A DNA stretch of 53,764 bases from Candidatus Rokuibacteriota bacterium. GTDB lineage: Bacteria; Methylomirabilota; Methylomirabilia; Rokubacteriales; CSP1-6. How positions within the stretch are numbered: position 1 is the stretch's first letter; each line of letters starts with the position of its first letter. Positions 9,424 through 31,264 of this stretch are shown in pieces. The stretch covers positions 1-53,764 of the forward strand of contig VBPC01000170.1 in assembly GCA_005887895.1 (NCBI GenBank), in the 5' to 3' direction. The notes beneath the pieces were generated by a model. That model was not told the DNA's origin, did not search any database, and saw only the letters and a program-made list of their open reading frames with translations. A program made the translations under genes and the position numbers.

Positions 9424-10272
9424 TTACCGCAACACGGTCTCGGCGATGCGCGTCAGCTCCGTCCCCATCTCCGACTCCGTCTTCACCGTCGGCGGTCGCA
9501 CGATCACCCGGGTCGCGCCGGCGTCGTGCAGCCGCCGGATCAGATCGCGGTCGGCCGGCTGCCCGTGGACCGAGATGGTGATGGCGGAGGGATCGCGCCC
9601 CGCGTCCTTCGCCAGCCGGTCGAGCGTCGCCCGGCGCTCGCGCAGCTGCTCCGGCGTGATCCGGTTCGGCAGCCAGCCGTCGGCCCAGGCCACGATCCGC
9701 TCGAGGACGTTCCCCGCCGCTCCGCCGAGGATGACCGGCGGGTGCGGCTTCTGCGCCGGCTTGGGAAAGGACTTCACCGGCGGAAAGTCGTAGTACGTGC
9801 CGTGGAACTCGGCCGCCGGCTTCGTCCACAGCTCCTTCATGGCCAGAACCGACTCGCGCACCTGGGCCCAGCGGTGGTCGAAGTCGCCGCCCATGATCTG
9901 CGTTTCTTCCCGCAGCCAGCCCGCTCCGATGCCGAACAGAAACCGCCCGCCGCTGAACAGGTCCAGCGTCGACACCTCCTTGGCCAGGAGCAGCGGGTTC
10001 CGCTCCGGCACCAGCACGATGCCGGTGCCGAGCTTCACCCGCGTGGTGACGCCCGAGGCGCGCGCCAGGGCGACGAAGGGATCGACGAAGTGCGAGTAGC
10101 TCTCGGGGATGACGCCGTCCTCCGAGCCGGGGAACCGGCTCGTCGTGCGCACCGGAATGAACGGATGCTCGGCGCACCAGAACGACTCGAAGCCCAGCTC
10201 CTCGGCCTTGCGGGCCATGAAGGCGACGTCCACGTGGTAGGCGGGCAGCGGCACCGAGATGCCGATGTTCAT
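9424..10272 (-). CDS. LLM class, probable F420-dependent oxidoreductase (Rv2161c-like)
   Basis: Start MNIGISV; AEELGFESFWCAEH, DPFVALA, RNPLLLAKEVSTLD, GIGAGWLREE, PKPAQKPHPP. Confidence 0.9.
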   Translation of the reverse strand: MNIGISVPLPAYHVDVAFMARKAEELGFESFWCAEHPFIPVRTTSRFPGSEDGVIPESYSHFVDPFVALARASGVTTRVKLGTGIVLVPERNPLLLAKEVSTLDLFSGGRFLFGIGAGWLREETQIMGGDFDHRWAQVRESVLAMKELWTKPAAEFHGTYYDFPPVKSFPKPAQKPHPPVILGGAAGNVLERIVAWADGWLPNRITPEQLRERRATLDRLAKDAGRDPSAITISVHGQPADRDLIRRLHDAGATRVIVRPPTVKTESEMGTELTRIAETVLR

Positions 10273-10297
10273 CGTCGAGACGTCCTTTCTCCGGCGG

Positions 10298-11506
10298 TCA
10301 GCCCAGCACGCCCCGCGCGCGGAGCGCCGACACCTCGTCGGTCGACAGGCCCAGCACCTCGGCGAGGACGTCCGCGGTGTGCTCCCCGGCCAGCGGCGCC
10401 GGGGTCGTGGGCGCCTCCGACGCCGAGAGATGCACCGGGCAGCCGGGCAGCCGCAGGTGCCCACGCGTGGCGTGCTCCAGCGTGTGGATCTGGCCGCGCG
10501 CGTTCAGATGCGGGTCGTCGAGGATCTCGCCGGTGTCGAGGACGGCGCCGCAGGGCACGCCGGCCTTGCCGAGGATCGCCATCACCTCGTGCTTCGTGCG
10601 GGCGCCCGTCCACGCGCGGACGATCTCGTTCAGCGAATCGCGATGCTCCCAGCGCGTCTTCGCGTCCTGATAGCGGGCGTCGGCCAGCAGGTCCTCGCGC
10701 CCGATCGCGGTCACGAAGTCGCGCCACATGTCCTGGTTGACGGGCTGCACGTAGATGTAGGCGTGGTCGTTGGACCCGCCCGGCGCGCACGGATAGGCCC
10801 CGCCGGGGACGCCGCCCACCAGTCCGTTGCCGCGCCGCTCGCTCGGCTTGCCGTCGCGGTAGTGATCGACATAGCGGCCGCGCAGGAAGTTGGCTACGAC
10901 CTCCTGCATCGAGACCTCGACGAGCTGGCCCTGGCCGGTGCGCTGGCGCTGGATGTAGGCGGCCAGGATCGCGGCGGCCGTGTGGACCCCGGTGCCAGTG
11001 TCGCCGATGGCGGCGCCGCAGCGGATGGGCTCGCGATCGGGGAAGCCGGTCACGCTCATCACGCCGCCGACGGCCTGCGCGATCATGTCAAAGCTCTTGT
11101 ACTCGTGGTACGGCCCCGACAGGCCGAAGCCCTTGATGCGCGCCACGATGATCGCGGGATTCACGCCCCGCAGCCGCTCGTAGTCCAGGCCGAGGCGCTC
11201 CATGAGGCCGGGGGCGAAGTTCTCCACCACGACGTCGGCGCGCTCCACCATCTTCAAGAACAGCTCGCGCCCGGCGGGGTTCTTGAGGTCGATCGTCACG
11301 CTGCGCTTGTTGGAGTTGAAGACGAGAAAGAACATCGCGTCGAGGCCGGGCACCTCCGGACGATTGCGGCGCGACTGCTCGCCGCCCGGCGGCTCGATCT
11401 TGATGACGTCGGCGCCGAGCCAGCCCAGGAACTGGGTGCAGGTCGTGCCGGCTTCGAACTGGGTGAGGTCGAGGATCCGGATGCCGCTCAGCGCGCGCTC
11501 GGCCAT
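10298..11506 (-). CDS. CaiB/BaiF family III CoA-transferase (formyl-CoA transferase-like)
   Basis: LSGIRILDLTQFEAG, LGADVIKIE, NSNKRSVTIDLK, DVVVENFAPG, FDMIAQA, APLAGEHT. Confidence 0.92.
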   Translation of the reverse strand: MAERALSGIRILDLTQFEAGTTCTQFLGWLGADVIKIEPPGGEQSRRNRPEVPGLDAMFFLVFNSNKRSVTIDLKNPAGRELFLKMVERADVVVENFAPGLMERLGLDYERLRGVNPAIIVARIKGFGLSGPYHEYKSFDMIAQAVGGVMSVTGFPDREPIRCGAAIGDTGTGVHTAAAILAAYIQRQRTGQGQLVEVSMQEVVANFLRGRYVDHYRDGKPSERRGNGLVGGVPGGAYPCAPGGSNDHAYIYVQPVNQDMWRDFVTAIGREDLLADARYQDAKTRWEHRDSLNEIVRAWTGARTKHEVMAILGKAGVPCGAVLDTGEILDDPHLNARGQIHTLEHATRGHLRLPGCPVHLSASEAPTTPAPLAGEHTADVLAEVLGLSTDEVSALRARGVLG

Positions 11507-11574
11507 GGCTCGCCCTCCCACGTGTGGCACCGGCAGTCTATCATTGGGTCCGAGACCGATCCCACGGAGGCCGT

Positions 11575-12726
11575 ATGGCTCTGAAGTTCGGCATCTTCGA
11601 CCACATCGAGCCGGTGCCCGGGCTCCGGCTGGACCAGATCTATCGCGAGCGTCTCATCCAGATCGAGCGGCTGGAGCGGGCAGGCTTCTCCGCCTATCAC
11701 CTCGCCGAGCACCACACCCCGGCCATCCACAGCCTGGCGCCCTCCCAGAACGTCTTCCTGGCCGCCGTGGCCCAGCGCACGACGCGCCTGCGCTTCGGAC
11801 CCTGCGTGTACGTGCTGCCGCTGCATCATCCGCTGCGGTTGATCGAGGAGATCAGCATGCTCGACAACCTGAGCGGCGGCCGGCTGGAGATCGGCGTCGG
11901 CCGCGGCGGTGTGATGGAGGCGTTCTTCTGGGGCCAGGAGGCCGACTCCGAGACGAACTACGCGCGCTACGTGGAGACGCTGGCCATCCTGCGCGAGGGC
12001 CTGAGCCACGACCAGCTGACCTATGCCGGCCGGTTTCACAGCTTCGACAAGCTGCCGATGTACCTCCGCCCGCTGCAGCAGCCGTACCCGCCGCTCTGGT
12101 ACATGCGCAATCCGGTGACGGCGGCCATGGAGGGCATGCACACGATCATCGTCGGGTCGATCGACGGCCTGGCGATGGCGGTGCCGCGCTATCGCGCGGC
12201 GTGGGAGGAGCACCAGGGCGCCGGCACGCGCACCGTGCAGGGTCAGGAGCCGATGATCGGGCTCGTCGTCCACATGGTCGTGGCCGAGACCGACGCGGAG
12301 GCGCTGGCGGCCGCGCGACCGGCGTGGGAGAAGTACCGCTGGAACCTCGCCGCGCCGCGCCGGCTCGAGGCCGAGAAGCGCAACCTCACGCAGTTCATGT
12401 CCACCAAGGACGGCTCGTTCGGCTTCGTCGGCGACCGCCCGGCCGGGCTGCCGGGGCGCGAGCTGCGCCGCGACATCGACGCCGAGCTGGAGCGCTTCGA
12501 CCAGGTCAAGCAGGGCTCGCATCCCAACCGCCTGGGCGGCGTCGCGCTGGCCGGCACGCCGACCGCGGTGCGCGAGTACATGGACGAGTACGTCGCGACC
12601 GGCGCCAACTACTTCGTCTGCTCGTTCCAGTGGGGCGACCTCAGCCACGCCCAGGCCATGCGCTCGATCGAGCTGTTCGCCACGGAGGTGATGCCGGCCT
12701 ACGCGACCGCCGCCCCAGCGCGGTGA
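11575..12726 (+). CDS. LLM class flavin-dependent oxidoreductase
   Basis: MALKFGIFDH, YHLAEHH, LPLHHPLRLIEEISMLDNLSGGRLEIGVGRG; GGAGG RBS before ATG 11575. Confidence 0.92.
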   Translation: MALKFGIFDHIEPVPGLRLDQIYRERLIQIERLERAGFSAYHLAEHHTPAIHSLAPSQNVFLAAVAQRTTRLRFGPCVYVLPLHHPLRLIEEISMLDNLSGGRLEIGVGRGGVMEAFFWGQEADSETNYARYVETLAILREGLSHDQLTYAGRFHSFDKLPMYLRPLQQPYPPLWYMRNPVTAAMEGMHTIIVGSIDGLAMAVPRYRAAWEEHQGAGTRTVQGQEPMIGLVVHMVVAETDAEALAAARPAWEKYRWNLAAPRRLEAEKRNLTQFMSTKDGSFGFVGDRPAGLPGRELRRDIDAELERFDQVKQGSHPNRLGGVALAGTPTAVREYMDEYVATGANYFVCSFQWGDLSHAQAMRSIELFATEVMPAYATAAPAR

Positions 12727-12846
12727 TGACTATCCGCGGATCGTTCAGGTTCGCGCGGAGGAACAACCGCGACCACTGGGGCGCCCGGGCATCGACGCCA
12801 CCGCGCGTGGCAATAGCCGCCCTCACCGCGGTAGCGGCGCTCGCCG

Positions 12847-12935
12847 GCCTAACGGATCGGCGCTGAGCGGCCGGCGCTGGCGAGTTCGCTTAGCCGCGGC
12901 GCATTCATGCCGGCCGCTCAAGCGGCTTGTTAGCC
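12847..12935 (-). repeat. attC site (89 bp) closing the toxin-antitoxin cassette
   Basis: Minus strand GGCTAAC-aagcc-GCTTGAGCGGCCGGC...GCCGGCCGCTCAGC-gccgatcc-GTTAGGC; the toxin stop TAA lies in the inverse core. Confidence 0.88.
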
Positions 12936-13184
12936 AAGCAGCCGATCGTAGCCGGCATGGCTGCCAATCCAGAACCAGACCAGCCCGTCTGATGCTTCGA
13001 CTGCGAGGGTGCGCTAGTGAGCGCCGACGCGAGCCGACCAGAACCTGCCTACCTTCTTGAAGTGAAGCGAGGGGTGCCGCGGATCCTGTTTCAGGCGCGT
13101 GTACGCTTGATCGGCGAGATCCCGAATCTCCTGCGGCAGAGATCGGTACAGCGCCCAGAAGTCCGGGGACGCGTGATGGGTCAG
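12930..13184 (-). pseudogene. RelE/ParE-like toxin with a premature TAG at codon 57
   Basis: Own translation: (CTG)THHASPDFWALYRSLPQEIRDLADQAYTRLKQDPRHPSLHFKKVGRFWSARVGAH*RTLAVEASDGLVWFWIGSHAGYDRLLG. Stop at 13014-13016; start overlaps the antitoxin stop. Confidence 0.85.
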
Positions 13185-13381
13185 ATCGGCGTGGTCTTGC
13201 CGGCTGCGTGGTCACGAAGGGCCCTGGCCGCTAGGTCGTCGAGGCGGCCCGCCTCAGCATCGCGCTCGATCTGGCGGTCCCAGATCGCCCAGTCGTACTC
13301 CAAGAACCAGGCGCGAAACTGCGCCAGCTCTTCGGCGGAGAGCGCCTGGACCTCTCGCTCGATCTTCTCGATCTTGCTCAT
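13181..13381 (-). CDS. putative antitoxin (66 aa, WDRQIERD motif)
   Basis: Small protein immediately upstream of, and overlapping by 4 nt, the RelE/ParE-like frame. Confidence 0.8.
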   Translation of the reverse strand: MSKIEKIEREVQALSAEELAQFRAWFLEYDWAIWDRQIERDAEAGRLDDLAARALRDHAAGKTTPI

Positions 13382-13402
13382 AGACCTTCAGCCGGTGCCC
13401 TC

Positions 13403-13411
13403 AGTCTAGCA
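13403..13411 (-). promoter_or_regulatory. extended -10 (TGcTAGACT) internal to the TA cassette
   Basis: TGn-TAGACT about 20 nt upstream of the antitoxin ATG. TA cassettes typically carry their own promoter. Confidence 0.5.
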
Positions 13412-13446
13412 TCCTGATGTGCAGGGGACAGAACCCATTGCCTGCT

Positions 13447-13536
13447 CGCTAACGCATGACGGCTGAGCGGCCGGCGCTGGATGCGCCGTCATTGGCACCA
13501 GCCATCATGCCGGGCCGCTCCAGCCGTTTGTTAGAC
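13447..13536 (-). repeat. attC site (90 bp)
   Basis: Minus strand GTCTAAC-aaacg-GCTGGAGCGG...CCGCTCAGC-cgtcatgc-GTTAGCG; clearly similar to the 12847 site. Confidence 0.88.
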
Positions 13537-13545
13537 GGCATTTCG

Positions 13546-13917
13546 TCACCGCCAAAGGGCCCACCATGGTCGCAAGTGGCGTCCGAGTGCGCGACGAATC
13601 ATCACCAGTAGATAGTGGTCCCCCTGGGCCAGCATCGAGTAGGCCTTTCGGTATCCGTCCCTGGCAGCGCCGTCGGACTTGAGATCGCGCTGATAGGAGC
13701 GCTCAAGTAGACCGGCGACCTTGGTCTCATAGTCGTCGTCGGAGATCTCTGTTGCCAGCTGCTCGACCAATGCCGGGTCGGGTGTAAACGCGGGGTCCGA
13801 TTCCGACCAACTCAACATTGCCTGCTCGGCCGCAGACAGTCCCATTTGCTCCGCATGAGCTTGCGCCAGCACCTTTCCGACGAAGAACAGCTTGGCCTCA
13901 GTCTGGGTCGCAAACAT
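13546..13917 (-). CDS. cassette-encoded hypothetical protein (123 aa)
   Basis: MFATQTEAKLFFVGKV...MLSWSESDP...GDHYLLVMI. Fills the space between two attC sites; cassette ends GTTAGACGG and CCGTCTAAC are complementary. Confidence 0.8.
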   Translation of the reverse strand: MFATQTEAKLFFVGKVLAQAHAEQMGLSAAEQAMLSWSESDPAFTPDPALVEQLATEISDDDYETKVAGLLERSYQRDLKSDGAARDGYRKAYSMLAQGDHYLLVMIRRALGRHLRPWWALWR

Positions 13918-13940
13918 GCTTGCTCGACGCCAACTTGTCC

Positions 13941-13997
13941 GTCTAACGTCACGGTGAGCGCCGCGCGAAGCGCGTCCGCTCAAGCGTGGAGTTAGAC
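13941..13997 (-). repeat. attC site (57 bp)
   Basis: Minus strand GTCTAAC-tccac-GCTTGAGCGG-aCGCGC-TTC-GCGCG-gCGCTCACC-gtgac-GTTAGAC. Confidence 0.85.
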
Positions 13998-14724
13998 ATC
14001 GACTTCACGCACTTCGATGGCGAACTGCCGTTCATGCTGAATCGTATCGTACAGTCTCACTGGATGCTCTCGCTTCTCCAGCCAGTTGCGAATCCGGACG
14101 CGGTCGTCCTGGGGCATCCGCACCCCGAATATGACGCCCTTCAGGAGTCCTGAAGGATAGTCGCGAAGACCGGGACCGCGCTCATGGTCGATTAGCCGCC
14201 ACTCCTGTTCATGGCCAACCGCTGAACTTCGTTGTAAAGATCTGATCGACTTGATCCTCGGTGGGTGTGAAGATGTCGACCGACGGTAGATCCTCGGCGT
14301 ACCGGACCTGCTGTGCCGCACCAAAAACCGGGATGAAGTCTGTGGCCTCGAATTGCAGGCAGTAGCCCTGATGATCCTGCGCGTAGTGCGACCACATGAG
14401 GATGCTGTTGTTCACCGGCGACAGGCAATACAGTCCGATCCCACGCCGAGTCTGCTCCCAGTCCAGCGTCGGTTCTTTAGCGAGGAACATGGTCAAAGCC
14501 TGAGCGCGCGCTTGTTCATCGGTGAGGATGGGATTCCGCCTCATCAATGTCCGGGTAAGCGATGCGACGATCTGGTCCTGGGTGCCATTGAATATCAACC
14601 ACGGTCGGCATTCGAACGGATCGTTGAGTTGCGAAGGAGCTGAAAACCAAATTGTCGGCGTCGCAAATAGCGCCTCGGAGTACTTGTTGAGGCGGCCGTA
14701 TTTGTAGAGGGAGTCGATCGTCAT
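13992..14724 (-). pseudogene. DUF2971-like cassette gene, frameshifted near 14213
   Basis: LYKY, LNDPFE, CLS, LMWSHYA, TK..GW in one frame; EQEWRL and VIFG continue in another frame to the stop in the attC inverse core. Confidence 0.82.
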
Positions 14725-14732
14725 GCTCCGAT

Positions 14733-14789
14733 GCCTAACGGATCGCTGAGCGGCCGGCGAAGCCGGCCCGCTCTAGCGGTTTGTTAGAC
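14733..14789 (-). repeat. attC site (57 bp)
   Basis: Minus strand GTCTAAC-aaacc-GCTAGAGCGG-GCCGGC-TTC-GCCGGC-CGCTCAGC-gatcc-GTTAGGC. Confidence 0.9.
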
Positions 14790-15145
14790 CGCAGTCTCGT
14801 GGCCCTAGCGGCGAGGACGAGTCCGGCTGCTGCCCCGCCGACGAATCCAGCAACTGAAGCGATGATAGGGCCGAGCAGAAGGCCTCCGGCAAGCACGACG
14901 CCGCGTACGTTGCGACCAACTCCCGGGGGTGGTGTTGTTCCGGTCCGTTCGAGGGCTTCTGGAAGAAAGTAGAGTACAAACACCGGGACATTGGCCACTA
15001 CGCATCCCAAGCTCGACCACAGCCAGACGCGCCAGGCGAAGGGGAAACCCGAACGAAGGCCCGGAACAATTGCACAGATGAGCGTGATAGTAGCGAGGAG
15101 GACTACCGCGAGGATGAAGCCGACAGCGACTATGAAGTAGGGCAC
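14735..15145 (-). CDS. cassette-encoded hypothetical membrane protein (about 3 TM segments)
   Basis: Three hydrophobic stretches; the ORF reads through its own attC and stops at the TAG in the GTTAGGC core. Confidence 0.7.
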   Translation of the reverse strand: MPYFIVAVGFILAVVLLATITLICAIVPGLRSGFPFAWRVWLWSSLGCVVANVPVFVLYFLPEALERTGTTPPPGVGRNVRGVVLAGGLLLGPIIASVAGFVGGAAAGLVLAARATRLRSNKPLERAGFAGRSAIR

Positions 15146-15210
15146 GGCTCTTCCGCGTCGGCTCTCTCAGCCTGGCTCAGTCGTGTTCGCTCGTCCATCG
15201 TTCGTTATCG

Positions 15211-15245
15211 GTCTAACTTGATGTCGCTCGAACAGCGTAAGGGTT
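15211..15245 (-). other. attI-like recombination site
   Basis: Minus strand ...cgacatcaa-GTTAGACCG is complementary to CGGTCTAAC of the first attC. No palindromic partner lies upstream, and it abuts the intI remnant. Confidence 0.6.
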
Positions 15246-15247
15246 GT

Positions 15248-15479
15248 GATGCAGCGAATCCACGCAACGTGCGACTTCTCGGTGCGGCGGCTCCCGTGGC
15301 GGCCCGTGGCGGGGGTGCAGCACGTCGCGGACCCGATCGAGGAACCGGGGCTGGCGCGGAGCGGGCGCCCCAGGCGCGCACGGCCAGGGCGCCTCCGGCC
15401 CTCGCATATAAACGACACCGGTGACCGTCCGCGAGATCATGATGTCGGCATCGTAGTTCCCTTCGCAGGAAATCGGCAA
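15248..15479 (-). pseudogene. intI: integron integrase N-terminal remnant
   Basis: PRFLDRVRDVLHPRHG plus RHGSRRTEKSHVAWIR matches the IntI N-terminal pattern (LLD.VR..LR.RHYS.RTE..Y..WIR). Frameshifted by a 10-bp tandem duplication (CCCGTGGCGG x2, 15293-15312); catalytic domain absent. Confidence 0.8.
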
Positions 15480-15501
15480 GACGTCGCCGAAGCGATACGG
15501 C

Positions 15502-16356
15502 TTAGCTGGCGCCGAGGGCGCGCCCCGCGTCGGCGGCGAAGCGTTCCAGCGCCGCCGCGTCCATGTCTGGCTTCGGCCGGATGATCAGCCGGTCCACGCC
15601 GGCCGCCGTGTAGGCGGAGACCAGCGTCTTGTCCGGCACATCGAAGCCGGGCGGCGTCACGCCGATCTCCAGTCGCCCCAGCTCGGCCGGCCGCGGGTGC
15701 TTCTTCGCGGCGTCGCGCAGCGCGCCGACGAACTTCTCGGTCGTCGCCACGTCGAGCCCGAATCCGTACCAGCCGTGGGCCTGCATCACCGCGCGACGGA
15801 ACGCGGGCGCGGTGCGCCCGCCGACGACGATGCGCGGCGTCGGCGTCTGCACGGGCCGTGGCATCGCCTGCACGCCCTCGAACGCGACGAACCGGCCCTT
15901 GTAGGCCGGCTTCGGCTGCGTCCACACCGCGCGCATCGCCGCCAGGTACTCGTCGGCGATGCGGCCGCGATCGGGGAACGACACGCCGACCGAGCGCATC
16001 TCCGGCTCACACCAGCCGACGCCGAGCCCGAAGACGAGCCGCCCGTTCGACAGCACGTCGAGCGAGGCGAGTTGCTTGGCGAGGACGAGGGCCTGGCGCT
16101 GCGGCAGGATGATGACGCCGGTTCCGAGCAGGATGCGTGTGGTGTGGGCGGCCAGGAACGTCAGCGCGACGATCGGGTCGAGGAGGCGCTGGTCCGGCGG
16201 CATCGGCCGCTCGGGCGAGGGCGGATCCGGCAAGACCACGTGGTCGGCCACCCAGAGCGAGTCGAAGCCGGCGGCCTCGGCCGCCCGTCCGAGCCGCGCC
16301 GCGGCGTCGGGGTAGGCGCAGGTGTGCAGGTTCACGGAATGCAGTCCGAACTTCAT
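15502..16356 (-). CDS. LLM class, probable F420-dependent oxidoreductase
   Basis: AEAAGFDSLWVADHVVLP, DPIVALTFLAA, LAKQLASLDVLSNGR, GLGVGW, PRPVQ. Confidence 0.9.
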   Translation of the reverse strand: MKFGLHSVNLHTCAYPDAAARLGRAAEAAGFDSLWVADHVVLPDPPSPERPMPPDQRLLDPIVALTFLAAHTTRILLGTGVIILPQRQALVLAKQLASLDVLSNGRLVFGLGVGWCEPEMRSVGVSFPDRGRIADEYLAAMRAVWTQPKPAYKGRFVAFEGVQAMPRPVQTPTPRIVVGGRTAPAFRRAVMQAHGWYGFGLDVATTEKFVGALRDAAKKHPRPAELGRLEIGVTPPGFDVPDKTLVSAYTAAGVDRLIIRPKPDMDAAALERFAADAGRALGAS

Positions 16357-16407
16357 GGGGCGCCTCTCCTCTAGAATCCTCTTGCCAGTTAGCTTTTCAG
16401 CAGGACG

Positions 16408-16965
16408 TCACTCGACATACAGCTGTCCGGCCACCTCGTGGCGGCCGTCGGCGGCGCGGCGGAGAACGACGAAGGCGCCCATCCGCACCGTGAGGCCGGT
16501 GAGGTCGGAGACGACCGAGCCGTGGGTGACCAGCACCAGGAGCGGTCCCTCGCGATGCGCGTCGATCTTCTGCTTGATCTCCTCGACCAGATGCTGGCGC
16601 AGCGTGGTGTCGTTGAGCGCGCCCTGCAGGACGTTCCAGGCTTCGGCCTTCCCGAAGGCCAGACGCGCGGTGTCGAGACAGCGGCAGCGCGGGCTCGACA
16701 GCACGGCGCCCACGGCGATGGCGTTCGCGCGAAACGCCTCGCCGACGCGCCGGGCCTGGGCGCGGCCGTTGTCGTCGAGATTGCGCTGGGTCGAGCAGTC
16801 CTCCAGGCGCGCCCCGGGCGGGTCGAAGCCACCGGGCGCATAGCTGTGGCGCAGCACCACGACGCTGCCGGGCTCGCGCAGCGCGCCCCACACCGACTCG
16901 TCAGCGAGCGGCGCCGAGGGCCAGGCGCTCAGCAGCGCGGCGATCAGCCAGACGAGCGCGCGCAC
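16408..16965 (-). CDS. exported histidine phosphatase family protein
   Basis: Signal peptide; LRH motif, QRNL...GR.QA, SSP.CRC.DTA, LVTHG. Confidence 0.85.
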   Translation of the reverse strand: MRALVWLIAALLSAWPSAPLADESVWGALREPGSVVVLRHSYAPGGFDPPGARLEDCSTQRNLDDNGRAQARRVGEAFRANAIAVGAVLSSPRCRCLDTARLAFGKAEAWNVLQGALNDTTLRQHLVEEIKQKIDAHREGPLLVLVTHGSVVSDLTGLTVRMGAFVVLRRAADGRHEVAGQLYVE

Positions 16966-16973
16966 GGCCCCAC

Positions 16974-18245
16974 CTAGACGGTCTGTGCGATCTGCGAGCC
17001 CGCCGGCAGGTCCGCGTCCCGCCAGTCGGTGCCGCGCGGAAGCACCGCCTCGGCCGCCGCAAGGCTGGCGTACGTGGGGTCGACACCGCGCGGCGTGCCG
17101 TCGTCGGCAACGGTCTTTACGGCCTCCAGCAGCAGGCGGCGGGCCTGGATGATCGCGCGATCGGCGGGGCCGAGGTGCTCGCGGCTGCGATCGACGATGG
17201 CGCCCATGCCCTCCTGGATTGCGCGGTCCTGGGTGTTGATGCCGTCGATGCCGGTGAAGGTCTCCGTCTTTTGGACCTGGCGGTCGAGCATGTAGTTGTT
17301 ACGGCGGTTGCGGATGCCACGAAACGTCTTCTGGTCGACGTCGAGGGGGCCGTTCCCGAGGCGGCGCTCGAGGCGGTCCTCGGCGGTGAGCGGCTCGGTC
17401 ACGCTGTACTCCCAGTTGTAGACCATCGTGGTCTCGTCGTCGATCGGCACCCACATGTGGCCGGCCACCAGCGGCACTCCGCCCTCCGAGCGCGAGGGGC
17501 GAATCTGGTGGAACGGTAGGATGAAGTGATAGGTCCGCACGTGGACGGTCGCCTCATCGAGGGGGCGGACACCCGCGTACCGGTAGCCGTAGTCGGTGAT
17601 GTCGACCTCGAGCTTCGGCGCCTTGCCGCGCACGAAGGGGTTGTCGGGCTTGAAGCCCGGACGCTTCGAATCGCGCGTGAGCAGGCGGTGCAGGATCGGG
17701 GCGTGCGAGGTGTCGATGCCGCCCTCGACGCCCTGCAGCCAGTTGCTCTCCTGGATCACCTTCGACACCGTGATGTGCGTGGCCGGCACCCGCGTCCACG
17801 CGAACGACGGCGGCGCCGGCTTCCGCTCGGGCGGGCCCAAGTACGCCCAGATCACGCCGCCCGTCTCCAGCGTCGGATACGACGTGATGGCGATCTTGTC
17901 CTTGAACTGCAGGTCGGCGGGCTCGTTCATCATGTCCACGCAGCGGCCGTCGACGTCGTACTTCCAGCCGTGGTAGACGCACCGCAGCCCGCACTCCTCG
18001 TTGCGCCCGAAGAACAGCGACGCCCGGCGGTGCGGGCAGTACTCGTCGAGCAGGCCGATCCGCCCGCGCGTGTCGCGGAACGCGACGAGGTCTTCGCCGA
18101 GCAGGCGCACGCGCACGGGCGCACCATCGGGCTCCGGCAGCTCCCGGGCGAGCAGCGCCGGCAGCCAGTAGCGCCGCAGGGTGGCCCCCATCGCAGTGTC
18201 GGGACCGACGCGGGTCAGGAGCTCGTTGTCTTCGCGTGAGAGCAT
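16974..18245 (-). CDS. Rieske non-heme iron oxygenase alpha subunit (phthalate 4,5-dioxygenase-like)
   Basis: CPHR...CVYHGW Rieske ligands; NW.Q..EGGIDTSH...LH iron site; QDRAIQE. Confidence 0.93.
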   Translation of the reverse strand: MLSREDNELLTRVGPDTAMGATLRRYWLPALLARELPEPDGAPVRVRLLGEDLVAFRDTRGRIGLLDEYCPHRRASLFFGRNEECGLRCVYHGWKYDVDGRCVDMMNEPADLQFKDKIAITSYPTLETGGVIWAYLGPPERKPAPPSFAWTRVPATHITVSKVIQESNWLQGVEGGIDTSHAPILHRLLTRDSKRPGFKPDNPFVRGKAPKLEVDITDYGYRYAGVRPLDEATVHVRTYHFILPFHQIRPSRSEGGVPLVAGHMWVPIDDETTMVYNWEYSVTEPLTAEDRLERRLGNGPLDVDQKTFRGIRNRRNNYMLDRQVQKTETFTGIDGINTQDRAIQEGMGAIVDRSREHLGPADRAIIQARRLLLEAVKTVADDGTPRGVDPTYASLAAAEAVLPRGTDWRDADLPAGSQIAQTV

Positions 18246-18342
18246 GACTCGATCCTCCTCACGGCCGGGGCGGCCTTCGGGAGCGAATCCGGTGGCGCCG
18301 GGCTATTATAGCGCCCGCATCACGACGGAGGCGGAGGCCGGC

Positions 18343-19167
18343 ATGGAGCCGACGATCAGGTGGCCGCAGGGCAAGCGATGCGCGGTGGCGCTCTCGTTCG
18401 ATCTCGACGGCGAGAGCCCGTGGATCCACCGCGACCCCGCGCTGGCCGAGCGGCCGCTGCACATGAGCATGGGGGCCTACGGCCCCAAGACCGGCGCCCC
18501 GCGCATCCTCAAGGTCCTCGACCGCTACGACCTCAAGGTGGCGTGGTTCATCCCGACCTGGATCGTCGAGCGCTATCCCGACGTCTGTCGCGAGATCGTG
18601 CGCCGGGGCCACGAGGTGGGCCACCACGGGCACCTGCACGAGAAGCCCTTCTTCCTGCAGGGCGGCGCCGAGGAGGAGGAAGCGCTGCTGGTGAAGTCGC
18701 TCGACATCTTCAAGAAGGTGCTCGACCTGCGGCCCCGGGGCTCGCGCCTGCCATCGGCGGATCCGTCGAAGCACTCGATGGAGCTGCTGAAGAAGCACGG
18801 CTTCATCTATCACTCGAACCTCATGGACACCGACCTGCCGTACTGCCACAAGACACAGCACGGCGAGCTGGTCGAGCTGCCGACGGCGTGGTGCAACAAC
18901 GACTGGCCGTTCTTCGGCTTCAGCGCGGTGCCGCCGGTCGGCCACGGCATCTGGAGCCAGGAGGACGTGTTCGCGATCTGGAAGGAAGAGTTCGAGGGCG
19001 CCTACGACGAAGGCGGCTTCTTCAACCTGATGGGCCATCCGCAAGTGGTCGGCCGTCCGTCGCGCATGCGCATGGTGTCGCGGCTGATCGAGCACATCCT
19101 CGGCAAGGGCGACGTGTGGATCGCGCGCCCGATCGAGATCGCCGAGCACTACCTGGCCCAGCGATGA
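18343..19167 (+). CDS. polysaccharide deacetylase (CE4/NodB, PuuE/PgdA-like) family protein
   Basis: WPQGKRCAVALSFDLDGE, YGPKTGAPRIL, GHEVGHHGHLHE, MGHPQVVGRPSR. Confidence 0.88.
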   Translation: MEPTIRWPQGKRCAVALSFDLDGESPWIHRDPALAERPLHMSMGAYGPKTGAPRILKVLDRYDLKVAWFIPTWIVERYPDVCREIVRRGHEVGHHGHLHEKPFFLQGGAEEEEALLVKSLDIFKKVLDLRPRGSRLPSADPSKHSMELLKKHGFIYHSNLMDTDLPYCHKTQHGELVELPTAWCNNDWPFFGFSAVPPVGHGIWSQEDVFAIWKEEFEGAYDEGGFFNLMGHPQVVGRPSRMRMVSRLIEHILGKGDVWIARPIEIAEHYLAQR

Positions 19168-29817: not shown

Positions 29818-31264
29818 GGCGGAGCACCTCCGCGGCGGCCTTCTCGACCACCGTGCCCTTGAAGAAGTCCGGGTTCACCTCGCCCCAGAACCGCACGGCG
29901 TTGGTGAACATGAAGTCGCGGAAGTCGCCGTCGGTGATGAGCCCGTGCTCGACCAGCTCGTAGGCCTCCGGCACGACCGCGGCCATGTCGGGGACGTCGA
30001 AGTGGCCGATGTCCGAGCTGAACAGCGCGTTCAGCCGGGCGCCCATCGGGTTCGCCTCGCGCTTGAACGCCCACGCGTTGACCGGATCGTCGGCCTCGCA
30101 GCCGAAGTAGAAGCGCGGCACGAACAGATCGCGGATGTCCTCCTTGCGGCCGATCTTGCACCGGAAGTAGTCGTCGAGGTCCTCGAGACCGCCGGTCAGC
30201 GTGGAGTTCGAGTCGCCCTCGAGCCCGTCGCCGCGGCCGACCGCCTCCGCCACGGCCTCGCTGCCGTACTTGCGCGCGAATTCCAGCAGTCGCGCGCGCT
30301 CGAGGTTGGCCGGATTCGTCTTCTCGAGCGCTTGGCGGTTGCGCTTGTCCCAGTGACCGATGAGGTCGGCGTACAGCATGCACGCCCAGCCCACCCCGCC
30401 CTCCAGGAACGCGAAGTTCAGGTCGGGGAAGCGCCGGGTGACCCCGCCGAAGAACAGCGCCTTGGCGACCGCGTGGCCGGCCGAGGCGAAGTGGCCGATG
30501 TGGTTGTAGCAGAAGTTCGACGGCGAGTTGCGCAGCAGGATCGAGCGGGCGCCGTTGTGGAAGCTCGGGGCGACGCGCAACTCGCGGCACTTCTGCCAGA
30601 CGGGGTCGTAGTCGTGGTCGCTGTCGATGCCGACGACGTCGTACCACTCGACGAACTTCGAGACATCCGGATGCTCTTCGGCCAGCGCCGGGATCGGCCG
30701 CCGCATGAGGCCGCCGACCATCATCACCTTGTAGCCGAGCTGCCGGGAGGCGAACTCCAGCTCCTCGATCGCCTCCTCCGGCGTGTACATCGGGATGATC
30801 GCGGCCGGGATGATGCGGTCGGCGAACGGACGGAACTGCTCGGCGGTGAACACGTTGTAGGCGCGGCAGATCGCGCGCCGCAGCCGGGTGTCCGGCATGC
30901 GGTGGTAGCCGAGCCCGGCCGTCGGGTACACGACGCAGAAGTCGATGCCGAGGTCGTCGAGCCGCTCGTACATGAGCCGCGGCAGCATCGCGGTGGCGCG
31001 GTCGAGGACGTTCTCGCACGGCGAGCCCCAGAAGGCCTCCTGGGCCACTCGCCGGCGGCGCCGTTCGGGCAGCGACATCTTCAGCGCGTTGGGGACGCGC
31101 TGGCTGGCCAGCGCGAAGGCCTCGGCGGCCGCGTCGCCGCCGATGCGCCGGAACTCCTCGCGCATGACCGGCGCGTACTCCAGCCAGTGGCCGTCGGCGT
31201 CGATGACCGGGTGGTTCAGCCGGGAGCGGAGCGTGCGCGCATCGGTTGCGCCGTTGCTGGACAT
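29807..31264 (-). CDS. amidohydrolase family protein
   Basis: IDADGH, RAYN, YDPVW, RRFP.L..AFLEGG, FSSDIGHFD. Confidence 0.88.
   Translation of the reverse strand: MSSNGATDARTLRSRLNHPVIDADGHWLEYAPVMREEFRRIGGDAAAEAFALASQRVPNALKMSLPERRRRRVAQEAFWGSPCENVLDRATAMLPRLMYERLDDLGIDFCVVYPTAGLGYHRMPDTRLRRAICRAYNVFTAEQFRPFADRIIPAAIIPMYTPEEAIEELEFASRQLGYKVMMVGGLMRRPIPALAEEHPDVSKFVEWYDVVGIDSDHDYDPVWQKCRELRVAPSFHNGARSILLRNSPSNFCYNHIGHFASAGHAVAKALFFGGVTRRFPDLNFAFLEGGVGWACMLYADLIGHWDKRNRQALEKTNPANLERARLLEFARKYGSEAVAEAVGRGDGLEGDSNSTLTGGLEDLDDYFRCKIGRKEDIRDLFVPRFYFGCEADDPVNAWAFKREANPMGARLNALFSSDIGHFDVPDMAAVVPEAYELVEHGLITDGDFRDFMFTNAVRFWGEVNPDFFKGTVVEKAAAEVLRHGA

Follow-up and report, generated by a model that had tools for sequence, protein, structure and literature searches.

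Integrons in which the integrase gene intI, the attachment site attI and the gene cassettes lie on one strand have been described for Treponema (PMC3607928) and discussed as an 'inverted integron-integrase group' by Cury et al. 2016 (PMC4889954). According to the sections of the latter paper drawn on here, cassette arrays lacking intI are common; clusters of attC sites that have no integron integrase (CALIN) are delimited there as at least two attC sites within 4 kb with no functional intI, and loss of intI is one proposed origin. The same source gives intI pseudogenes near 15 of 279 CALIN, sought with a C-terminal IntI profile and PF00589. For archaeal integrons, a putative attI immediately downstream of intI has been reported, most of these elements being CALIN in fragmented metagenome-assembled genomes (MAGs; Ghaly et al. 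2022, PMC9668308). Here, we analyse contig VBPC01000170.1 (53,764 nt, hereafter the window) of a soil MAG in Methylomirabilota (5.5 Mb in 352 contigs, 92% complete), which carries a 2.6-kb integron remnant at 12847–15407. All of its features read on the minus strand: a truncated intI stub, a putative truncated attI, four cassettes and four attC sites. We interpret it, with a probability of roughly 0.85, as a chromosomal integron in decay that belongs to the co-oriented type (intI, attI and cassettes on one strand) and arose by a deletion of about 1 kb.

The inverted integrons of Treponema denticola and other Treponema have the same layout as the window stub and as the attC-bearing intI loci of the order to which its host belongs. 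The window differs from them in its host, a soil member of the Methylomirabilota and not a spirochaete, in an intI cut to about 50 codons and in an attI motif that appears specific to the lineage. Unlike the CALIN of Cury et al. 2016, it has an N-terminal-only integrase stub, which a screen of the kind used there would miss, and a probable attI core that can still be identified. It resembles the archaeal integrons in having a putative attI downstream of intI, the likeness considered here being one of layout; its host is bacterial. A literature search for integrons in Rokubacteria or Methylomirabilota returned no paper on the subject, as judged by titles and the opening of abstracts. Both the co-oriented layout and arrays without intI are already described, and the remnant is an ordinary decay product in an under-described host.

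attC sites, strand and integrase stub

The features that carry this interpretation are the following, attC sites being given with their scores under two covariance models, R1 and R2.

15254–15407, minus strand: intI stub (pseudogene), identified by blastx to the IntI of relatives and by DNA matches to the 5' ends of their intI genes
15293–15312, no strand assigned: 10-bp tandem duplication, CCCGTGGCGG twice on the plus strand, which frameshifts the stub
15215–15253, minus strand: putative truncated attI that retains about 40 nt from the end of the lineage's attI, upstream boxes lost
14733–14789, minus strand: attC D, 57 nt; R1 84.6 bits, R2 71.4 bits
13941–13997, minus strand: attC C, 57 nt; R1 75.4 bits, R2 63.1 bits
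13447–13536, minus strand: attC B, 90 nt with a long variable loop; R1 66.4 bits, R2 56.3 bits
12847–12935, minus strand: attC A, 89 nt, last site of the array, no second bulged base; R1 62.6 bits, R2 51.0 bits

Model R1 was built from the four attC sites of the window; R2 drew solely on other genomes, with 48 attC sites that had been chosen by means of R1, so that the independence of the second model is partial. R1 found 53 distinct further attC sites in 11 loci of related genomes and no additional attC in the 5.5-Mb genome of the host, where scoring covered 150 of some 11,680 first-look candidates. R2 recovered the same four window sites at 51.0–71.4 bits, and attC covariance models thus hit the four palindromes recognized in an initial annotation made from the letters of the window. 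The next best R2 match in the window, at 30818–30899, reached 18.5 bits; it was dismissed as a fifth attC as it lies inside a long coding open reading frame (ORF). Each palindrome is imperfect, with an RYYYAAC-like box at its start and GTTRRRY at its end. The sites are spaced 461–792 nt from start to start, lie on one strand and have R'', L'', L' and R' boxes and a hairpin, and they therefore qualify as a cassette array and as CALIN.

The hairpin of this attC family is backed by covariation. Across the 48 foreign sites, 92.4% of hairpin cells are paired, compared with 24–41% in slid controls, and compensatory changes on both sides occur in 14 of the 22 pairs; none of 500 shuffles reached the observed values. 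A search of 11500–17000 against 4227 Rfam families gave no attC match, the sole match being a chance miRNA (E = 0.53). A simple hairpin scan of the genome recovered two of the four window sites, and the covariance models were used in its place. No fifth attC was found at 15100–15500 with filters off.

At 14744–14793, in attC D, many short soil contigs of runs X1, X2, X5 and X8 match the attC alone, with three to four differences, and then diverge into unrelated sequence; summed depth there rises to 120 in X8. attC sites of the window's type appear to be abundant in soil metagenomes.

The pairs of 5' core and inverse core hold as the initial annotation wrote them; for cassette 1, the 5' end GTTAGACCG is complementary at 9 of 9 positions to R'' of its own attC, D. 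These complementarities are uninformative on orientation, because they are symmetric and identical on either strand. In an attC, the arm with AAC in the top strand is known to be the one bearing the extrahelical bases, and a 6-bp stem separates the first of these from the last (Nivina et al., PMC5027507). In the window, bulged bases are found on the minus-strand AAC arm: sites D, C and B each have two of them, at alignment columns 19 and 26 with six pairs in between, and A has one. A lone core site, GTTAGACCG at 15217–15209, marks the upstream end of the array. The arm of the bulges, the minus-strand ORFs and the lone core at one end together identify the minus strand as the attC top strand, with the array running from 15216 to 12847. 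Stub, attI core and four attC sites follow one another in that order on the minus strand, which is the co-oriented layout.

The stub consists of about 50 codons, likely starting at the ATG at 15407, and lacks the catalytic domain. Its IntI-homologous codons, QPRFLDRVRDVLHPRH and RHGSRRTEKSHVAWIR, lie in adjacent frames at 15365–15306 and 15301–15254 (minus) and correspond to about positions 1–27 of the 315 in TIGR02249, as numbered via an IntI of the same genus (455 bits); the matched residues lie in the first helix of the N-terminal domain and immediately ahead of it. When all long ORFs at 23 recombinase loci were searched by blastx, both pieces matched only proteins above the TIGR02249 cut-off; the matches from the XerC and XerD loci of the host genome were spurious and in another frame. 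The fragment thus has the identity that the initial annotation gave it, an N-terminal IntI piece on the cassette strand that matches the IntI of relatives and not the Xer recombinases of its own genome. The extent of 12847–15479 given there stands at its left end and not at its right, with the likely start of intI at 15407 and the array itself starting at the crossover between 15217 and 15216.

A complete integron has an intI scoring above the TIGR02249 cut-off; here, about positions 1–27 of 315 are left, frameshifted, and the only integrase sequence near the array is this stub, as in CALIN. The search for a complete intI elsewhere, which the initial annotation had suggested, revealed no IntI above the cut-off in the 92%-complete MAG: its three TIGR02249 matches are XerC (C329) and XerD cut by a contig end (C262).

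Layout and integrase decay in related genomes

Of 61 genomes in the order, the host genome (G000) included, 19 encode an IntI above the TIGR02249 cut-off; our counts over 60–61 genomes include the unpublished genomes G036 and G022, and no statement hinges on those two. R1 detected attC in ten of 11 fetched intI loci of the order, and all 52 sites lie downstream of intI and are co-oriented with it; the matches on the reverse strand are fainter repeats of these. At the eleventh locus (G001:C315), no attC was matched, but the attI motif is present downstream of intI. We also sampled 80 public IntI loci (L063–L142) from many phyla, none from the window's lineage, with IntI 49–76% identical to the protein of the genus. 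Matches to attC were present in 23 of them, co-oriented and downstream in 17 and divergent and upstream in six. Co-orientation is the rule in the order and common in this IntI clade, given the ten of 11 order loci and 17 of 23 informative public loci. A divergent layout in intact relatives, which the initial annotation had named as the sign of a local inversion, is accordingly absent from these order loci, and its remark that co-oriented arrangements are a minority does not apply to this clade. The model built from the window's attC sites recognizes attC in Planctomycetota, Acidobacteriota, Thermoanaerobaculia, Eisenbacteria and others. The six divergent loci include three betaproteobacterial ones and one each from Verrucomicrobiae, Blastocatellia and Anaerolineae.

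Truncated integrase genes recur in the order. Stubs that keep the N-terminus and lie upstream of co-oriented attC sites comprise residues 13–104 of the reference IntI, joined to a cassette tail, in G059:C26, residues 21–77 in G045:C180, and residues 30–109 fused to 318–348 in G029:C165. These three loci, each with a different breakpoint, span:

L046, 2220–2673
L162, 2016–2727
L161, 2038–3869

At 11 further loci with the attI motif, co-oriented attC sites lie downstream in nine, and IntI pieces upstream in three, all of them C-terminal or internal. Because stubs and pieces vary in this way across the loci of relatives, intI loss by deletion is frequent in the order and has no fixed end-point.

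The attI motif also heads arrays without an adjacent intact intI in G035, G001 (C12, C137), G009:C80 and G034:C211 (loci L147–L156). G035 has six such motifs (C18, C20, C129, C181, C209, C261) and three IntI above the cut-off, all located on contigs other than these; in G009 and G034 the motif is present and no IntI exceeds the cut-off. That arrays without integrase still have attI was rejected as a sign of selection, as the loci were found via the attI motif. It is conceivable, and to our mind doubtful, that attI-headed arrays without adjacent intI are kept as satellite landing pads or gene stores served in trans by an intI elsewhere, and that arrays of the stub type are transcribed from the retained intI promoter and 5' end. 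Open IntI frames without the middle TIGR02249 block (e.g., positions 77–201) were seen in G006:C2:1995340–1995903, G012:C3:887464–888357 and G018:C11:80501–81154; either in-frame internal deletion or divergent inserts could account for them.

attI, the junction and the lost segment

In the eight loci with an intact intI frame, the core GTT and the first cassette follow 163–236 nt after the intI stop codon. One group of these core sites shares the motif T[TA]ACG-N2-GTTC[AG][AG]G-N9-G|TT, which follows intI in G003:C6, G026:C66 and G001:C315 and a C-terminal IntI piece in G030:C8. Among the 61 genomes, the motif has 17 matches in nine genomes, compared with none for a reversed control. Bases 3' of its second GTT vary between loci, as expected of cassette ends, while the first GTTC[AG][AG]G is conserved; crossover is therefore placed at the second GTT, which fits cassette 1 of the window. 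The window copy, the only one in its genome, lies at 15240–15215 with the crossover between 15217 and 15216. What a complete integron would have as attI is thus represented in the window by a putative last ~40 nt that match the lineage motif, with the first cassette at the second GTT and the upstream boxes missing. Another stretch like the attI core, CGTTCAGG at 12737–12753 on the plus strand, lies 100 nt past the last attC and on the opposite strand, and is probably due to chance.

An alignment with five attI regions shows that intI homology in the window ends at the WIR codons (15254) and attI-like sequence starts directly after, which places the junction at about 15254/15253; only CGC is common to both sides. 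A blastn search with the junction gave no match in the loci of relatives, and the similarity to attI emerged after alignment of the attI cores from intact loci. Compared with these loci, the window lacks about 288 codons and, from spacer and attI together, 125–195 nt, which adds up to roughly 1.0 kb. A deletion of about 1 kb fits, and an inversion does not, because attI is conserved downstream of intI in relatives and the window appears to retain its end right after the stub. Two propositions of the initial annotation are supported here: attI lies at the 3' side of intI, and one large deletion that removed the catalytic domain agrees with a stub that joins the attI end directly.

Junction and 10-bp duplication are spanned with no differences by contigs from three soil runs of three studies, and all runs containing remnant sequence are soil metagenomes, with no RNA run listed among them; one of the three may be the source sample of the MAG. 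The contigs crossing the junction are:

672 nt (runs X1, X2), equal to 15106–15777
513 nt (run X5), equal to 14928–15440

We propose the following course of events. The ancestor would have had a full intI with attI about 160–240 nt past its stop codon. From this, about 1.0 kb may have been lost by an illegitimate deletion between ends sharing only CGC, which took IntI positions about 28–315, the spacer and upstream attI and would have left the intI promoter region, some 50 codons, the terminal ~40 nt of attI including G|TT, and four cassettes. The 10-bp tandem duplication presumably frameshifted the stub later; a frameshift would also have hit the DUF2971 gene of cassette 2, and a nonsense codon the ParE-like toxin gene of cassette 4. 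The present remnant would not recombine on its own. Excision of its cassettes by an IntI acting in trans could be possible, because the four attC sites keep features that integrases read, namely R and L boxes, bulges on the correct arm and the 6-bp spacing. Insertion at the shortened attI is doubtful, and cassette transcription, if any, would most simply be read-through from the intI promoter.

The loss may instead have proceeded by several smaller deletions or rearrangements over time, with the same outcome and another history. The other independent lesions at the locus (10-bp duplication, frameshift, nonsense codon) speak for such a course, as do the internal gaps and two-piece remnants among the intI genes of relatives. 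The window, in contrast, has a single junction, with clean intI homology facing clean attI homology and nothing between, for which one event is the simplest account, and we regard stepwise loss as unlikely.

A self-inflicted deletion, by site-specific recombination of IntI between a secondary site in intI and attI or attC, is improbable. Direct sites in the co-oriented layout would indeed excise the intervening segment, and the stub does lie near the crossover. However, about 40 nt of attI upstream of G|TT are retained, so that the junction is off the recombination point, which argues that the event was not integrase-mediated; the junction in G059:C26 likewise falls off such a site, within cassette sequence about 60 nt before an attC.

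Still less probable is descent from a classical divergent integron, in which a local inversion would have turned the 5' end of intI before the remainder was lost. The divergent layout is that of textbooks and is found in the six of 23 informative public loci noted above; yet none of the fetched same-order loci is divergent, and attI lies past the 3' end of intI in this lineage. Two events would be needed, and there is no C-terminal IntI piece nearby.

We give hardly any credence to a scenario without intI loss, in which cassettes were inserted in trans at an attI-like secondary site beside an unrelated recombinase fragment. Such insertion is listed as one route to intI-less arrays in the account of their origins by Cury et al. 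(PMC4889954), but the fragment is IntI-specific, its order and orientation relative to the attI motif are those of intact loci, and stub plus attI without cassettes was not seen at the site in 13 same-genus genomes. An assembly artefact, i.e., a chimeric join or MAG error, might be suspected of a fragmented MAG whose attC repeats attract foreign contigs (depth spike and loose ends at 14744–14793), and is dismissed with the contigs of three runs and three studies that cross the junction without a difference, no alternative joint having been reported.

Several points weigh against our interpretation as a co-oriented integron truncated by one deletion. One deletion and several are not distinguishable at this locus. 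The segment 15215–15253 is read as a putative attI from its conservation and position only; the motif was written after seeing the window, whose core is identical to that of G001:C137 at 21 of 26 positions and is several bases off the commonest form. An intI may possibly lie on unassembled DNA of the fragmented MAG. The fetched loci of relatives mostly hold about 1.2–2.4 kb upstream of intI (6.7 kb in one and 80 nt in another), and a second, divergent array could lie farther away. The frameshift in cassette 2 was read from the assembly alone. As to read-through, and to Pc, the promoter that drives the cassettes of a complete integron and that this lineage is not known to have, a scan of 12700–15560 returned no sigma-70-like promoter sites, with a consensus that may not be the lineage's; the loss of a Pc-bearing region proposed in the initial annotation is conjectural. 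The same scan gave one weak terminator-like site, inside a gene.

Cassettes, genomic setting and implications

The four cassettes, in array order, are:

14739–15216, minus strand: cassette 1, ORF 15145–14735 for a predicted membrane protein of 136 amino acids (aa), no family match
13947–14738, minus strand: cassette 2, DUF2971-family gene (Pfam PF11185), frameshifted near 14215–14222
13453–13946, minus strand: cassette 3, intact ORF of 123–145 aa (13917 or 13983 to 13546), no family match
12853–13452, minus strand: cassette 4, two-gene toxin-antitoxin-like cassette

Family matches among them are limited to DUF2971 and ParE_like. NCBIfam had no match for any cassette protein, and Pfam none for cassette 1, cassette 3 or the 66-aa ORF of cassette 4, bar a chance DUF919 at E = 0.07. 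The stop codon of the cassette 1 ORF lies inside the R' box of attC D. In cassette 2, the DUF2971 gene is split into pieces at 14724–14209 and about 14216–13995, while the homologue in the relative G087 is continuous across the break and is aligned by blastx to two window frames. Cassette 4 has an intact upstream ORF of 66 aa (13381–13181), followed by a ParE-like toxin ORF (13184–12933) that scores 24.0 bits against PF24732 ParE_like, just below the 24.4 cut-off, and is interrupted by a TAG nonsense codon at 13016–13014. At this place, 11 of the 12 orthologous cassettes encode Tyr or His, and the remaining one could not be aligned. With its DUF2971 frameshift and ParE-like nonsense codon, the array is decaying further.

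Of 60 related genomes, 14, belonging to different families, hold cassettes of the type of cassette 4 at 74–83% identity. Cassette 4 is a travelling cassette, since its type is found between attC sites of arrays downstream of intI in other genomes (G059:C24 and G003:C6). In none of its copies (window 12853–13452, L025–L036) does the ParE-like ORF have ATG, GTG or TTG as a start, and a CTG after the upstream stop codon is conserved.

The remnant is flanked by two convergent genes:

11524–12726, plus strand: left flank, luciferase-like monooxygenase gene
15502–16356, minus strand: right flank, luciferase-like monooxygenase gene

Mobile integrons of classes 1–5 are marked by transposition or plasmid association and by resistance cassettes, and neither was found among the neighbours inspected at 10000–19000. 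A repeat search revealed the attC repeats only and no mobile-element repeats at the flanks. A Rieske oxygenase encoded in the window shares a cluster, at 90% identity or more, with a protein labelled Methylomirabilota bacterium.

The site varies within the genus. In six of the 13 same-genus genomes (G003:C4, G005:C5, G010:C18, G011:C535, G012:C1 and G009:C56), a zinc alcohol dehydrogenase gene separates the left monooxygenase gene from those to the right of 16400. G007 (C22) has nothing there but 19 bp, and in the remaining genomes the two sides are on different contigs. The integron remnant and the right-hand monooxygenase gene are, by this sequence comparison, apparently particular to the window genome at that site, because same-genus genomes carry other content and none of the 13 has an attC there. 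The right-hand monooxygenase gene has orthologues elsewhere in relatives; neither IntI nor attI lies alongside those of G001 and G005. A weak attC-like match (19.9 bits) lies 1.4 kb from one orthologue, on L062. DNA matches to the region upstream of the stub occur in G054, G057 and G048, and no IntI or attC was found there.

The general understanding of integrons is unchanged by this remnant. It documents integrons, an attI motif specific to the lineage and frequent integrase decay in soil Methylomirabilota. N-terminal-only integrase stubs escape pseudogene screens that use C-terminal profiles, and for this reason some arrays filed as having no integrase trace may have lost intI by deletion in place.

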